Assembly: GCA_944391485.1 (NCBI GenBank)
Contig: CALXTQ010000014.1
Location: 679 to 64,678, forward strand
Direction of reading: 5' to 3'
DNA length: 64,000 bases
Source: an uncultured Alphaproteobacteria bacterium
Lineage (GTDB): Bacteria > Pseudomonadota > Alphaproteobacteria > RF32 > CAG-239
Part shown: positions 15,500-19,915 of the stretch, in pieces
How the letters are laid out: each line of letters opens with the position of its first letter
Numbering within the stretch: position 1 is the first letter of the stretch
Notes under the pieces: generated by a model
What the model was told of the DNA's origin: nothing
Database searches by the model: none
What the model saw: the letters and a program-made list of their open reading frames with translations, nothing else
Translations under genes and position numbers: made by a program

Positions 15500-16273
15500 A
15501 TGTGGAAAACACATCTTGCTTTTGGAATCGCTGCGGCGCTTATTGCCTCAGCCGCTTTGGCGCAGCCGGGCCGGTATGTCCGCAAGCAGCTGAAGCCGCA
15601 GTTTTTTATTCCCGAAAAAGAGCTTAACCGGCAGGAAGAACTGCCAGAATTTAACTATTATCCTTTGGGCGGACAAACAGGCGCCGATGAAGCGCAGGCG
15701 GCTCCGCAGCCCGGACAAGACGACCTTTCCGCGGCGTCCGGCAATATTTTGCAACAACCGGAAGAAACGGTGGCAACCGCAACGGCCGACAATCCTGAAA
15801 AGATGGCAGAACAGCTTCCGCCGCCGTCTCTGCCGGCAGAAAACACGACCGAAAGCGCCTTTAACAATTATGACAAGCAGGAACTGGCATCGCTGCCCGA
15901 ATACAAACAAAAATACACCGATTACGTTCATGATCTGAAAATTATCGCACAGACGGGAAAAGCTCCCGATAACCCGCGGGTGTTGAAAGATCTGGCGAAA
16001 ATGAACTCCAATGACAGAATAACCGTTGACGATACTTTCGGCCTGATGCCCCGTGCGGAGACAAACAGCAAAAACAGTTCGGCCACGGCAGACAGAAGTC
16101 TCCCGGAAACAGCCACCCAAACGAAACCGGCCGAAAGCACCCCAACAGGACTTGAAGAGAACCGCGTAGCAATATCCGCCACCGAGGAAGAGAAACATCC
16201 TGAAACAGCTGCTCAAACAGAACCGACCGAAAGCACCCCGGCAGAACCAGCTAAGCAAAAAAACTTTTTATAA
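15500..16273 (+). CDS. Secreted hypothetical protein with low-complexity segments
   Basis: Signal peptide ending ALA. The 3' end overlaps dapE. Confidence 0.75.
   Translation: MWKTHLAFGIAAALIASAALAQPGRYVRKQLKPQFFIPEKELNRQEELPEFNYYPLGGQTGADEAQAAPQPGQDDLSAASGNILQQPEETVATATADNPEKMAEQLPPPSLPAENTTESAFNNYDKQELASLPEYKQKYTDYVHDLKIIAQTGKAPDNPRVLKDLAKMNSNDRITVDDTFGLMPRAETNSKNSSATADRSLPETATQTKPAESTPTGLEENRVAISATEEEKHPETAAQTEPTESTPAEPAKQKNFL
16103..16246 (+). repeat. Intragenic duplication (about 48 bp, 96-bp period)
   Basis: PETATQTKPAESTPT at 16103 and PETAAQTEPTESTPA at 16199. Confidence 0.8.
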
Positions 16274-17384
16274 ATTCAAAATAGATATTTGTCAGCTTTT
16301 CGATATTTTCAACCGTTTCGCACTCATTGGTTTTGTGAATGCTGCCATTGGTCAGTCCAAACTCGACGACAGGACAGTATTTTTTCACAAAACGGGCATC
16401 CGATGTGCCGCCTTTGGTTGAATACTCTGGTTGAATGCCGCTGACTTTCCGAACGGCTGCCGACAGTTTTTCAACATCGGGACTGATTTTGCTCAAAAAA
16501 GCCTCGCCGGCAATTTCGTAATCCAGCTTAAACCGTCCCGGCGCACGGCTGATAATTTCTTCCACCCATCTGACAATCGACGTCCCGCTGTGGCTGCTGT
16601 TGAAACGAATGTCAATCTGGGCAAAAGCCTCGGCTGGTATGACGTTTGACGCCAGATTTCCAACATCTACCGTCGTAATCTGAAGCGTTGACGGATCAAA
16701 AAACTCATTACCGTTATCGAGCGGAGACCGCGTCAGCTCTGCTAGCAGAGTTACCAGATTGTGTATCGGATTGACGGCCAGGTGCGGATAAGCCGTGTGT
16801 CCGGCCTCGCCGTATGACGTTATTTTCAGCACAATATCACCGCGGCGGCCGATTTTTATTTCCTCGCCGATCCGCCGCGGATTTGACGGTTCGCCGACAA
16901 GGCAGAAATCAAATTTTTCTCCCCGGGCAGAAAGGCGTTCCAGCATTTTATCCGTCCCGTCAACCAGAGGCTCTTCCTCATCGCCGGAAATAAGCAGGCT
17001 TATCCGCCCAGCACCGCCCGACGCAAGATATTTCTTTGCCGCCGCCGCGAAACAGGCCGTGCCGCCTTTCATATCGGCAATGCCGCGGCCGTAGAGAATA
17101 CCGTCTGCTACTACGGCATCAAAGGGCGGATATTTCCAACCAGAAAAATCGCCGGCCGGAACCACATCCATATGTCCGGAAAAAAGAAGATGCCGGCCGC
17201 CACTTCCCGCCGTTGCAAAAAGATTGCCGACTTTCTGACCGCCGGGAGCGTCAATATCCGTGATTTTCCCGGAAAAGCCCGCTTTTTTCAAAACCGACAG
17301 CAGATATTCCAAAGCCGGCCCGACATTATTCTCATCTGTTTTGAAACGAACCAGTTCCCGGCATAATTCCAGCGCTTCCGACAT
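16251..17384 (-). CDS. dapE: Succinyl-diaminopimelate desuccinylase
   Basis: GHMDVVP, GRGIADMKG, GDEE, VGEPS, GHTAYPHLA, GGTSDAR. Confidence 0.95.
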   Translation of the reverse strand: MSEALELCRELVRFKTDENNVGPALEYLLSVLKKAGFSGKITDIDAPGGQKVGNLFATAGSGGRHLLFSGHMDVVPAGDFSGWKYPPFDAVVADGILYGRGIADMKGGTACFAAAAKKYLASGGAGRISLLISGDEEEPLVDGTDKMLERLSARGEKFDFCLVGEPSNPRRIGEEIKIGRRGDIVLKITSYGEAGHTAYPHLAVNPIHNLVTLLAELTRSPLDNGNEFFDPSTLQITTVDVGNLASNVIPAEAFAQIDIRFNSSHSGTSIVRWVEEIISRAPGRFKLDYEIAGEAFLSKISPDVEKLSAAVRKVSGIQPEYSTKGGTSDARFVKKYCPVVEFGLTNGSIHKTNECETVENIEKLTNIYFEFIKSFFA

Positions 17385-17433
17385 AATTTTTCCTCCGTAT
17401 TCTGAAAAAAAATTATAGAAGCGCCAAATTTAT

Positions 17434-17461
17434 TTGACAACTAAAATATCGGCGTTATCAT
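17434..17461 (+). promoter_or_regulatory. Sigma70 promoter of the leader-GNAT transcript
   Basis: TTGACA-16 nt-TATCAT. Confidence 0.7.
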
Positions 17462-17488
17462 AAAAAACAGATTTGTAAAGGATTTAAT

Positions 17489-17554
17489 ATGTTTGATATT
17501 GCATTGCACATTGCCCGCCGAGGGACTCTTCGCAAAAATAACTTGCGACGATGA
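17489..17554 (+). CDS. Putative leader peptide MFDIALHIARRGTLRKNNLRR
   Basis: AAAGGA RBS upstream of the ATG, 21 codons, five Arg, ends CGA CGA TGA. Too short for the ORF track. Confidence 0.7.
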   Translation: MFDIALHIARRGTLRKNNLRR

Positions 17555-17590
17555 TTTATGCGTTTTAAACACACAAATAAATTCAGTTGC

Positions 17591-17620
17591 AAGATTTGAA
17601 GAAATTCAAATCTTTTTTTT
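17591..17620 (+). terminator. Attenuator terminator between the leader and the first GNAT gene
   Basis: AAGATTTGAA-GAAA-TTCAAATCTT followed by a T-run, ending 25 nt before the GNAT start. Confidence 0.8.
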
Positions 17621-17645
17621 ATTTTCAGACAAAGAAGAGAACCTT

Positions 17646-18425
17646 ATGAAAAATTTAGAAAACCTACAATTCAAAAAACTGCAAATGACAATCCGGGACC
17701 TGCGGAGCCTGCTGGATCTGCAGGATAAGATTATTGCCAACTTCAAACCCGAAGAGCAGAATTTTATTCTGCACAGAACAATCGACGACTTCAGCAACGC
17801 CCTGAAAAGCGACCATATGTACGTTTTCGGATTATATGACGGCGACAGACTTGTTTCGCAATCCATTCTCTCCCTGCCCGGGAACAAAGACAAAAGAGAT
17901 CTGCCGGAGTTTGCCGGCGAATACAAAAATTCTGAAATTGCCGTTTATAAAGCCGTTTTGGTTGATCCTGAATATCGCGGGCACGGCCTGATGAAAGTTA
18001 TGCTGAGGGAACGGGAAAGGGTCGCCAAAGAACACGGCCGGAAACTGGCCATCACCCAGATTGCGGCAAAAAACCCGGCCAGCTGGGTTAACGCCGTCCA
18101 ATACGGCATGCAGATTATGCGGGCCGCGCATGACCCGGAAGACAACGCAGAGGTCATCTATCTGCAAAAACGGCTGGACGGAGAAAAAGATCCGCGGCTG
18201 ATGACGGATAAAACCTATGCCATCAAATACAGCAAAGAAATTCCCTGGGAAATTCTGTTCAACAAAATGGTCAATATCTCAAAGGCCGGCTGGGTCGGAA
18301 CAGCATGGGACAAGGAAAACAACAATATTCTGTGGCACCGGCGGGCCAGCACCGCCGAAAAGGTCTTGTGCGGACAACGCAACAGTAATTTTTGCTGGGG
18401 AAAGGTAAGCAGCTATGTTAAATAA
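17646..18425 (+). CDS. GNAT family N-acetyltransferase
   Basis: VLVDPEYRGHGL acetyl-CoA motif and KNPAS. Start at MKNLE. Confidence 0.88.
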   Translation: MKNLENLQFKKLQMTIRDLRSLLDLQDKIIANFKPEEQNFILHRTIDDFSNALKSDHMYVFGLYDGDRLVSQSILSLPGNKDKRDLPEFAGEYKNSEIAVYKAVLVDPEYRGHGLMKVMLRERERVAKEHGRKLAITQIAAKNPASWVNAVQYGMQIMRAAHDPEDNAEVIYLQKRLDGEKDPRLMTDKTYAIKYSKEIPWEILFNKMVNISKAGWVGTAWDKENNNILWHRRASTAEKVLCGQRNSNFCWGKVSSYVK

Positions 18426-18972
18426 ACTGAATATGCCCGAAAAAATGGAAAATGCAGACATCAGAATTATGAAAGTCGTTCCCGACATGTGCGATGATCT
18501 TTTTGAGGCAATAGAATCTTCGCGGGAATTTCTGCGCCAGTATCTGTTCTGGGTTGACGGGGTTAAAAATCCGGCGGACGAAGCGGCCTCCATCCGGATG
18601 TTTCTCGAAAACTGGGACAAAGGAGACTCTTTCATCTATGCCGTTTATGAAAAAAACAGCGGCCGGCTTGCAGGAACCATTGACGCCCATGCCATAAACC
18701 GCAATGATCATGTTGCCTATATCGGCTACTGGCTGAGAAAGGACCAAACCGGACACGGCTTTATCAGCAAAGCGCTGGCTCCTCTGGAAAAAATTCTTTT
18801 CGATCAGGGAATTCACCGGATAGTCATCATGTGCGAGGTTTCCAACCTGCCGTCCGCCGCCGTTGCCGAGCGCAATCATTATGTTTTTGAGGGAATTGCC
18901 AAAGAGCGCATCTGGTCTTACGGCGAGTTTCATGACGCCAAAATTTACGCAAAGCTGGCATCGGCTTTATAA
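18415..18972 (+). CDS. RimJ/RimL-type GNAT acetyltransferase
   Basis: LRQYLFWV, IGYWLRKDQTGHG, NLPSAAVAER. Overlaps the upstream GNAT. Confidence 0.9.
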   Translation: MLNKLNMPEKMENADIRIMKVVPDMCDDLFEAIESSREFLRQYLFWVDGVKNPADEAASIRMFLENWDKGDSFIYAVYEKNSGRLAGTIDAHAINRNDHVAYIGYWLRKDQTGHGFISKALAPLEKILFDQGIHRIVIMCEVSNLPSAAVAERNHYVFEGIAKERIWSYGEFHDAKIYAKLASAL

Positions 18973-19057
18973 TAGGCCGGTTTTATAACGTTTTGTATTA
19001 AAATCTGACGGCACTTTCAGTTTTGAGCAAGCTCAGTTTTTTAATGAAAATGCAATT

Positions 19058-19087
19058 AAAAAAGCACCTGATTTAAGGTGCTTTTTT
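19058..19087. terminator. Bidirectional terminator
   Basis: AAAAAAGCACCT...AGGTGCTTTTTT. Confidence 0.88.
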
Positions 19088-19093
19088 ACGTTT

Positions 19094-19915
19094 TTATTTT
19101 TCAGCTTTCTTTTTGGCCGGAGCTTTTTCAGCTGCTTTTTTCGCCGTTTTTTTCTTTACCGTTTTCTCTTTTTTGACGGCCGACTTTTTTTCTTTGGCAG
19201 CTTTTTCCTTTTTGGGAGCTGCTTTCTTTTCTGTTTTGGCTTTTGCCGTCTTTTCTTTTTTCGGTGCGGCTTTTTTAACCTTTGGCTCTTTTACGGCTTT
19301 TTCCTTTTTGGCAACCGCCTTCTTAGTGGTTGTTTTCTTCGCGGCTTTTTCGGAAGTCTTTTTAGCCTTTTTGACAACCTTGACTTTCGGCTTATTGCGG
19401 TTTTTGGAAATCGTAATCGCGTTATCCAGATCCTTTTCGGAGCACAGACCGATTGCTACCGGATTCTTAGCGCGGAGATTGGCCATATCTTTATGGGTGC
19501 CGCTGCGGATAGCCTCAATCGTGGGTTTGGTTGTTCCGATAATCTTGCAAATCTGCGAATCGATAACTTCCGGACAATTTTTCAAAATCCACAAAATGGC
19601 CGCAGGTTTATCGCTACGCTGCGACGGAGACAGCATTTTCTTGGCTTTGGCGTTTTTCAGCTTAACATTGCGCTCAATCTCATTAGGAGTTAATGAAGCT
19701 CTGGGATCCGCCTCGCATCTTCTAATTTCGACAATTGTCAGCTGGTTGTTGTCAACCGGACTTACGCCTATGATATTAGACGCGACATCACCATCGGCAA
19801 TGGCCTGAATTTCCAACTCGTGCAATTCGCAAAATTCGGCAATCTGACGAAAAGTCAGGGTCGTATTCTCTACCAGCCATACCGCCGTTGCCCTGGGCAT
19901 TAAAGGAGCTGTCAT
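19094..19915 (-). CDS. trcR: DUF1013/TrcR cell-cycle regulator with a Lys/Ala-rich tail
   Basis: PLMPRATAVWLVENTTLTFRQIAEFCELHELEI, DKPAAILW, IGTTKPTI. Confidence 0.85.
   Translation of the reverse strand: MTAPLMPRATAVWLVENTTLTFRQIAEFCELHELEIQAIADGDVASNIIGVSPVDNNQLTIVEIRRCEADPRASLTPNEIERNVKLKNAKAKKMLSPSQRSDKPAAILWILKNCPEVIDSQICKIIGTTKPTIEAIRSGTHKDMANLRAKNPVAIGLCSEKDLDNAITISKNRNKPKVKVVKKAKKTSEKAAKKTTTKKAVAKKEKAVKEPKVKKAAPKKEKTAKAKTEKKAAPKKEKAAKEKKSAVKKEKTVKKKTAKKAAEKAPAKKKAEK

Follow-up and report, generated by a model that had tools for sequence, protein, structure and literature searches.

An arginine-rich leader precedes GNAT1, a gene encoding a GNAT-fold acetyltransferase, in the stretch of DNA analysed here (the window: 64,000 nt of contig CALXTQ010000014.1, positions 679 to 64,678, from an uncultured alphaproteobacterium of the order RF32, family CAG-239; genome of 1.68 Mb, 99.7% complete). 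The leader is a real, conserved cis-regulatory element, and it counts as more than a chance arrangement because the comparative evidence is decisive: a covariance model recovers it across the family, and all strong matches combine a short upstream open reading frame (uORF) with a GNAT1 homologue. Judged by its sequence, it is best read as a variant of the trp-type attenuator in which the device is known and both the amino acid (arginine) and the target (a lone acetyltransferase) would be new. We assign a probability of roughly 55% to the specific proposal that it is a ribosome-dependent transcription attenuator of the trp type that senses the supply of Arg-tRNA and is dedicated to GNAT1.

Architecture and conservation of the leader

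All leader elements are held, on the plus strand, in the 262-nt intergenic gap between dapE and GNAT1, and a reading of the window made without database searches (the sequence-only reading) had already placed the promoter, ribosome-binding site, 21-codon uORF and terminator at the coordinates given here. A sigma-70-type promoter, TTGACA-16-TATCAT (17434–17461; 11/12 matches), is followed by a Shine-Dalgarno (SD) sequence, AAGGA (17478–17482), located 6 nt 5' of the ATG of the leader ORF MFDIALHIARRGTLRKNNLRR (17489–17554; 21 codons, stop TGA). Region 1 (TTCGCAA, 17529–17535) includes the invariant Arg codon CGC (17531–17533) at position −7, counted back from the stop; paired with region 2, it forms an anti-antiterminator. 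Region 2 (17542–17559), which contains TTG CGA CGA, the TGA stop and a further 5 nt, is also the 5' arm of a second helix, hairpin A, whose 3' arm is region 3 (ATAAATTCAGTTGCAAG, 17577–17593). The last 2–3 nt of region 3 double as the base of the stem of an intrinsic terminator (17592–17620), which consists of a 9-bp A/U-rich hairpin (17592–17613) and a run of eight T (17613–17620). The predicted regulated gene, GNAT1 (17646–18425, plus strand), encodes 259 amino acids. No promoter fits between terminator and GNAT1, a gap of ~23–32 nt in most of the 20 loci examined.

Promoter-like sites numbered 8 in the scanned 4-kb region, with 4.3 expected; among 41 homologous leaders, a promoter with at least 9/12 matches lies 18–32 nt 5' of the uORF ATG in 32, and a crude SD-like motif is present in 27. 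On the minus strand, a divergent promoter, TTGTCA-17-TATAAT (17440 to 17412, 11/12), faces dapE and has its −35 region in common with the leader promoter. The GNAT1 frame is open across the leader from a TTG at 17493 in this genome, and the recorded protein of 310 amino acids (P0001; 99% identity over the full length of GNAT1) has exactly the length of the over-long ORF starting there. This over-extended ORF hides the uORF and is an annotation trap. Beyond the uORF stop the frame is closed in all but 1 of 41 leaders, the exception being that of this genome; on this ground a +1 frameshift at CGA-CGA-TGA joining leader and GNAT1 was rejected. A whole-genome scan for other Arg-rich uORFs gave 56 candidates, of which 11 had a terminator-like site and none an SD sequence; since the 310-residue ORF made the scan overlook the true leader too, this is weak evidence against an Arg regulon.

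GNAT1 homologues were found in 14 of 61 relatives searched, and of the 12 genomes in this set that have a GNAT1 orthologue, 11 also have the leader. Two syntenic dapE–GNAT1 loci with the same gap length carry the uORFs MNKTTLHISSRSNRRSLYLRR and MFLRISKILFRGNRRHNLRR, followed by the same terminator. GNAT1 homologues with other upstream neighbours also have such a leader, and one genome (G014) has a GNAT1 orthologue that adjoins dapE across an 87-nt gap without it. A covariance model built from 9 homologous leaders matched 63 of 151 family genomes at E ≤ 0.01 (best E ~1e-15); 50 matched sites were retrieved and 51 matches were examined. The 42 matches scoring at least 42.7 bits, one per genome in 42 genomes of 12 genera, all possess an 18–25 codon uORF ending [L/M]-R-R-stop and, directly 3', a GNAT1 homologue 37–67% identical to that of the window. 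One further match at 36 bits also has the uORF and a GNAT1 homologue; the 9 weaker matches have neither and are ends of other genes with terminators. A second set of 150 genomes from the order, all but one of this family, yielded 48 matched genomes at E ≤ 1e-4 with one site each, the 15 new genomes being counted by model match alone. Upstream neighbours of the leader differ among loci, dapE preceding it in 10 of 42. A search of the plus strand of 17434–17646 against Rfam gave no match even at E values up to 10.

The fold of 17465–17645 is weak evidence when taken alone (z = −2.28; 4 of 200 shuffles as stable). The model-guided alignment of 42 leaders (40 distinct; 41 full-length rows, L065 being truncated) supports three successive helices: a uORF hairpin formed by R-x-R-R codons (hairpin 0), hairpin A and the terminator. 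Jointly these are paired in 80.5% of cells, compared with 34–42% when the partners are slid by 1–3 columns; compensatory changes occur in 15 of 26 pairs, and the observed covariation score was reached by 0 of 500 shuffles. Hairpin A is formed by the last three codons, the stop and ~9 further nt paired with region 3, and all 6 pairs of its upper stem covary. The antiterminator put forward in the sequence-only reading, in which CTTGCGAC (17542–17549) pairs with GTTGCAAG (17586–17593), is thus conserved with compensatory changes, and its suggested extension, TGATTTAT with ATAAATTCA, is borne out by a joint hairpin of −12.4 kcal/mol. Within region 2, TGCGACGATGA is almost invariant. The terminator stem, likewise anticipated before the first GNAT gene, is 99% paired over the 40 distinct leaders, with compensatory changes in 4 of 8 pairs, and a U run follows its hairpin in 40 of 42 leaders. 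Spacing between hairpin A and terminator is interrupted by a single 1-nt gap (L051) in the 41 full-length rows, and both loops vary in length.

Predicted energies are in keeping with alternative structures. In the window, hairpin A amounts to −12.4 to −13.5 kcal/mol and the terminator to −7.9 to −8.8 kcal/mol, falling to −3.4 kcal/mol without the two or three bottom nucleotides taken by hairpin A; averages over 41 leaders are −16 kcal/mol for hairpin A and −9.7 kcal/mol for the terminator. The window's terminator stem has only 2 G-C pairs among its 9 bp, so that it is unlisted in a consensus terminator scan requiring at least 3, and it is predicted by RNAfold. The hardware of the leader is well supported by this conservation, the helices and their energies.

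Arginine codons and the proposed switch

Codon content was analysed in 37 unique uORFs, excluding L065, for which the model match is truncated. Arg accounts for 27.7% of leader codons (21–37% per leader) and Lys for 4%, set against an Arg background of 5.0% in 1002 long ORFs of the genome and 3.6% in 238 long ORFs of the relatives' loci. Arg occupies position −1 (CGA 36, CGC 1), position −2 (CGA 37) and position −7 (CGC 27, CGT 8, AGA 2) in 37/37 uORFs, −9 in 27 and −6 in 24, and a cluster of Arg between −12 and −6 is general. The five Arg codons of the window's uORF are CGC CGA CGC CGA CGA, its 3' end reading CGA CGA TGA, and codons 10–11 (CGC CGA, 17516–17521) are the putative sensing codons. 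Other conserved features of the peptide are Leu or Met at −3 (35 of 37), Leu at −10 and −5, and a frequent K-H at −14/−13; Leu positions alternate between CTN and TTR codons, and N-termini vary freely. The uORFs are 18–25 codons long, most commonly 19, and end in TGA in 35 of 37. Given the Arg enrichment, the mixed Arg codons at −7 and the alternating Leu codons, the leader arginines are selected as arginines, and the uORF is a conserved frame that is under amino-acid-level selection and predicted to be translated. The enriched codons stand where a stall would free region 2, as is characteristic of trp/his-type attenuators.

The last two arginines are additionally fixed as one rare codon. CGA fills 73 of the 74 codons at −1/−2 and is the rarest Arg codon in the genome (3.7% of Arg codons; 5.6% in the relatives' loci), and none of the 1002 long ORFs of this genome ends in CGA CGA. 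Rare Arg codons before a stop are reportedly determinants of ribosome pausing in E. coli, to go by the title of a study by Hayes, Bose and Sauer from 2002. Clusters of rare codons and inefficient stop codons both make E. coli ribosomes pause, according to a report that cites this study (PMC2998420). By analogy, CGA-CGA-UGA is probably a terminal dwell site, the slowness of CGA here being assumed from its rarity.

The most likely signal would be a shortage of charged tRNA-Arg, which is the simplest one because Lys does not replace Arg and because more than one tRNA can decode Arg −7 (CGY or AGA). We infer this signal, as we do the physiological purpose of the switch and the pausing role of CGA-CGA-UGA. 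Searches of the 99.7%-complete genome for six gene families of arginine metabolism, the four biosynthetic ones argJ, argB, argH and ornithine carbamoyltransferase (OTC) together with arcA and speA, gave no match, and control genomes were matched. The organism apparently imports arginine and is unable to make it. Since none of the arginine-biosynthesis genes searched for was found, GNAT1 is not an arginine-biosynthesis enzyme, and a role as N-acetylglutamate synthase under an Arg attenuator was rejected on the same absences.

In the proposed mechanism, transcription would start ~20 nt 5' of the 21-codon leader ORF, which would be translated, and the RNA could adopt either region 1:2 together with the terminator or region 2:3, that is, hairpin A, which would take the bottom nucleotides of the weak A/U-rich terminator. 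On reaching the end of the leader, a ribosome, probably held on region 2 by the rare CGA-CGA followed by UGA, would cover region 2 and prevent hairpin A, so that the terminator forms and GNAT1 is off. A ribosome stalled at Arg 10–11 or at Arg −7 would instead cover region 1 and leave region 2 free to form hairpin A; the terminator would be crippled and RNA polymerase would read into GNAT1. Without translation, 1:2 would form first and the terminator after it. This polarity is moderately supported. When the footprint of a ribosome on Arg codons 10–11 is masked, the minimum free energy (MFE) structure of the window's nascent transcript contains the full hairpin A, and region 1:2 is predicted at −5.9 kcal/mol (RNAfold), its CGCA:UGCG pairs being present in 10 of 10 leaders aligned with RNAalifold.

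Several observations weigh against this proposal. The extent to which hairpin A encroaches on the terminator differs among the 41 leaders: the overlap is 1 nt in 19 leaders, at a cost to the terminator of 0.1–0.9 kcal/mol; 2 nt in 6 leaders (2.5 kcal/mol); 3 nt in 13 leaders, 12 of them, including that of the window, with a parsed terminator (5–8 kcal/mol); and 4 nt in 1 leader (6.4 kcal/mol), the remaining two rows having been mis-parsed. Thus 25 of 41 leaders overlap by only 1–2 nt, at 0.1–2.5 kcal/mol. Equilibrium folds with masked ribosome footprints leave the terminator at a probability of at least 0.5 in nearly every leader and state; for its bottom three pairs, the probability over 41 leaders rises from 0.59 in the free RNA to 0.72 when a ribosome occupies the stop, and is again 0.59 when the ribosome is placed at −7. 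Hairpin A and terminator coexist in the MFE structures of 22 of 41 leaders, and the full-length MFE structure of the window lacks hairpin A. The antiterminator geometry described in the sequence-only reading therefore holds in part: it works thermodynamically, by these predictions, in the window's subgroup, in which 3 nt are taken and hairpin A is the more stable structure, whereas in the largest subgroup, where the overlap is 1–2 nt and equilibrium folds keep the terminator, the switch would have to be kinetic or steric, through adjacency. Region 1:2 shows no covariation, its 4 pairs being nearly invariant, and in L053 and L054 region 1 is recoded such that 1:2 cannot form. Two leaders of one genus (L047 in G008, L062 in G138) have no U run and keep uORF, hairpin A and terminator hairpin; in these, termination at the hairpin may be lost, or regulation may take another form. 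The terminal CGA-CGA are themselves Arg codons, and starved ribosomes reaching them would favour termination. Finally, an Arg-starvation signal driving an acetyltransferase in an auxotroph is without evident physiological logic.

Metatranscriptome contigs from chicken gut (runs X18 and X20) cover 17643–17995 and 18008–18214 of GNAT1 and parts of dapE; they leave the leader uncovered and are silent on the presence of leader RNA and on its 3' end. One of these contigs has 5 base differences and probably derives from another strain.

GNAT1 and alternative readings of the leader

GNAT1 is, by its sequence and predicted structure, a member of the GNAT superfamily with a GNAT fold and acetyl-CoA binding loop. 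Its match to Pfam Acetyltransf_1 (PF00583) is weak (E = 7e-6; 26.7 bits, cut-off 20.7), the AlphaFold2 (AF2) model has a pLDDT of 89, and Y110-R111-G112-x-G114 is invariant or nearly so in 31 GNAT1 homologues. Structural comparison, which covered residues 1–181 and barely tested the C-terminal 60–70 residues, returned a generic GNAT fold with Z scores of 15–17 to many GNATs, the matches being similar for polyamine, antimetabolite, aminoglycoside, ribosomal-protein and N-terminal acetyltransferases. A PDB sequence search with GNAT1 found nothing significant, a search of the ESM Atlas gave generic GNAT clusters only, the recorded names of GNAT1 homologues read only 'GNAT family N-acetyltransferase', and PADLOC gave no relevant match.

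The same attenuator hardware could respond to a ribosome-targeting compound or to general translation stress, with GNAT1 modifying a drug or antimetabolite, in the manner of resistance genes behind antibiotic-induced leader-peptide attenuators. Of the alternatives this survives best, and we consider it unlikely. The RNA outcome would be the same wherever in the first two thirds of the uORF a ribosome stalled, and the layout is shared by the bmrCD, vmlR, tlrB and ytbDE leaders of B. subtilis, which consist of a uORF, an anti-antiterminator and a terminator (10.1101/2025.01.13.632840). A macrolide-arrest motif, Arg/Lys-X-Arg/Lys (+X+), is described in a further report (PMC12583479); of the 36 unique peptides, 29 contain it 5' of the terminal RR, compared with a mean of 22.4 in shuffled peptides, 11 of 1000 shuffles reaching 29. 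However, +X+ is missing from the window's leader and from 6 other unique peptides, and although Lys would serve equally in the motif, it makes up 4% of codons and Arg 28%. GNAT1 has the tabtoxin resistance protein (Z 16.4), AAC(6') (Z 14.6) and BAR (Z 14.4) among its structural neighbours, but N-terminal and ribosomal-protein acetyltransferases match at least as well as these resistance types, and no NCBIfam resistance family matched GNAT1. In line with this reading, the DNA runs holding 16900–19150 are labelled mostly as chicken gut metagenomes.

A related proposal combines a sensor of tRNA-Arg charging with resistance in an obligate arginine importer: GNAT1 would disarm arginine antimetabolites, or inhibitors of arginyl-tRNA synthetase, that are taken up in the gut. 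Lowered charging of Arg-tRNA would stall ribosomes on the Arg cluster, the N-acetyltransferase would be switched on and the analogue would be disarmed; N-acyl-amino-acid deacylases near GNAT1 would hint at an amino-acid-like substrate. We regard this as quite improbable. If it were true, an amino-acid attenuator would have been recruited for resistance and not for biosynthesis.

Alternatively, uORF, hairpins and terminator might constitute a small gene of their own, yielding an Arg-rich peptide of 18–25 amino acids and/or a stable RNA of ~150 nt, with GNAT1 expressed by constant partial read-through. The terminator would then set a high peptide:enzyme ratio, as it does for mccA-mccB of the microcin C operon, and GNAT1 might have the peptide as its partner or use it as a substrate. 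The conservation of the peptide beyond Arg (Leu −10/−5, Leu or Met −3, K-H −14/−13), the coexistence of hairpin A and terminator in most predicted structures, the strict one-to-one linkage with GNAT1 and the several peptide N-terminal acetyltransferases among the structural neighbours of GNAT1 would all suit such a gene. A peptide, however, needs neither an invariant CGA CGA nor a stop buried at fixed spacing in a helix that abuts a terminator; its N-termini vary freely, and genes for processing, export or other modification are not conserved near the leader loci. The proposal is accordingly given little credence.

Least probable of all is a switch of opposite polarity, or a nascent-peptide sensor. 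In this reading GNAT1 would be switched on when ribosomes stall on the terminal R-R-stop, region 3 then being free for other pairing; the stall would be due to the CGA-CGA pair, to slow release at UGA or to a small molecule sensed together with the nascent peptide, as for TnaC and SpeFL. No part of the leader is indeed more invariant than its last three codons and stop, and with a ribosome masked at the stop, L030, L031 and L042 pair codons −10 to −6 with region 3 and the 5' arm of the terminator, their terminator probability falling to 0.3–0.6. Yet this alternative pairing is not conserved (57.7% paired against 32–46% in slid controls, with its covariation score reached by 102 of 500 shuffles), and a ribosome at the stop makes the terminator more probable in most leaders. 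Pairing of uORF codons −10 to −8 with region 3 and the terminator 5' arm, tried as an alternative antiterminator, was unsupported by covariation, its duplex energies being on average no better than those of shuffles (mean z = −0.65), and pairing of region 3 with the terminator 5' arm was absent from folds constrained by a ribosome at the stop.

Neighbouring genes, distribution and relation to known leaders

GNAT2 (18415–18972, plus strand; 185 amino acids), which overlaps the GNAT1 stop by 11 nt, matches Pfam Acetyltransf_3 (E = 2e-16) and scores 88 bits against the NCBIfam RimL model PRK10151 (cut-off 184), making it RimL-like only. It follows GNAT1 in 4 of 42 loci and therefore appears to be an occasional passenger, the regulated gene being GNAT1 alone. 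The suggestion of the sequence-only reading that a GNAT pair is induced by Arg starvation is thus to be narrowed: the Arg enrichment is there, and the unit is one GNAT gene. The GNAT1–GNAT2 unit ends at a two-way terminator hairpin (19057–19088; 13-bp stem, T runs on both strands), which it shares with a convergent trcR-like gene (19094–19915, minus strand) of the TrcR family of cell-cycle transcriptional regulators, with a long Lys/Ala-rich C-terminal tail. The divergent neighbour dapE (16251–17384, minus strand) encodes succinyl-diaminopimelate desuccinylase (NCBIfam PRK13009, 428 bits; TIGR01246, 373 bits; both above cut-off).

Of 12 extended loci, 9 (L073–L080 and L082), which all belong to the main subgroup, have a deacylase of the AstE/AspA family (~282 amino acids) tail-to-tail with GNAT1, 0.8–3.2 kb 3' of the leader, and several of these deacylase genes overlap the 3' end of GNAT1; the Pfam assignment was checked on one, the deacylases being 43–63% identical to one another. 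In the window's subgroup the neighbour of GNAT1 is DapE instead. The genome of the window has only a 24%-identical relative of this deacylase, on contig C7 (L085), adjoining a possible ATP-grasp gene. By analogy, the AstE/AspA and DapE neighbours are leads to an N-acyl amino-acid substrate, nothing more.

The GNAT1 of the window is 59–67% identical to the GNAT1s of other genera that share the dapE linkage (G018, G029) and ~40% identical to those of its own genus (G001, G005, G006). Because it is closer to other genera than to its own, the leader–GNAT1 cassette may have been exchanged within the family. Three other genomes of the same genus have neither GNAT1 nor leader. The same genome also encodes a distant GNAT1 paralogue (~30% identity; contig C13, 50427–51059, minus strand; L016) with a different conserved leader, found in two relatives as well (L013, L017), which comprises a promoter, a 5' hairpin holding the SD sequence, a 16–17 codon uORF ending A-R-G-stop, for example MYFAGFIKSSRKKPARG, and a hairpin whose loop contains the stop codon, with no evident intrinsic terminator. 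In another family of the order (G037, L014), a GNAT1-like gene (33% identity) is preceded by a further uORF rich in Arg, MKKFVTKNIRRRRVLREKP, and then by a hairpin and its T7 run, and control of this GNAT clade by Arg-rich uORFs may extend beyond the family.

Leader-peptide attenuators are textbook devices of amino-acid biosynthesis operons, and in Proteobacteria the trp, his, leu, thr, phe and ilv operons have leader-peptide transcription attenuators. Likenesses of the GNAT1 leader to the trp/his type are a short uORF rich in the codons of one amino acid, regions that pair as 1:2 or 2:3 ahead of a terminator, and the predicted covering of region 2 by a ribosome at the stop and its release by an upstream stall. 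The leader differs in that the codons are Arg codons, the target is a lone GNAT in a genome without detected argB, argJ, argH or OTC, and the controlled gene does not appear to make the sensed amino acid; moreover, the uORF ends in an invariant rare-codon pair and stop inside the antiterminator, antiterminator and terminator overlap by only 1–3 nt, and none of the known leaders represented by Rfam families was matched. Two rare Arg codons directly before a stop recall the pausing described for E. coli, which Hayes, Bose and Sauer reportedly studied as a cause of tmRNA tagging at ordinary gene ends, whereas here the CGA pair would be a dwell site inside a regulatory helix. Full-text literature searches found no description of an Arg-codon leader-peptide attenuator with an intrinsic terminator, nor of a leader-peptide attenuator wired to a lone acetyltransferase in an organism lacking the pathway.

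The nearest published bacterial case of uORF Arg codons reporting arginine is orf34 (SpeFL) of speF in Salmonella and E. coli, in which the progress of the ribosome over consecutive Arg codons reports arginine supply (PMC6386406). As in the GNAT1 leader, Arg codons in a uORF and alternative mRNA structures decide the expression of the downstream gene; according to the same source, however, control of speF proceeds through Rho-dependent termination, unmasking of the ribosome-binding site and RNase G, and the 34-codon SpeFL serves an ornithine decarboxylase, unlike the 18–25 codons, GNAT target and intrinsic terminator found here. The loose resemblance to the SpeFL peptide suggested by the sequence-only reading is chance: among 36 unique peptides, the H-I-x-R-R pattern, searched for as H-[IT]-x(0-3)-RR, is confined to that of the window. 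The B. subtilis bmrCD, vmlR, tlrB and ytbDE leaders are alike in having a uORF, a hairpin that includes uORF sequence, a terminator and a non-biosynthetic target, and ribosome stalling there remodels the nascent RNA to allow read-through (10.1101/2025.01.13.632840). By that account they are drug-responsive and depend on NusG-dependent pausing, whereas in the GNAT1 leader Arg codons dominate.

As a natural series, the 37 sequence variants of one switch provide codon-specific evidence, and the invariant rare-codon pair and stop within the antiterminator suggest that the time a ribosome dwells on particular codons is built into the design of an attenuator. For the organism, the leader would mark GNAT1 as a gene whose product matters when the translation of Arg codons falters, and it offers a way into the function of this protein family, all known members of which come from uncultured gut Alphaproteobacteria.

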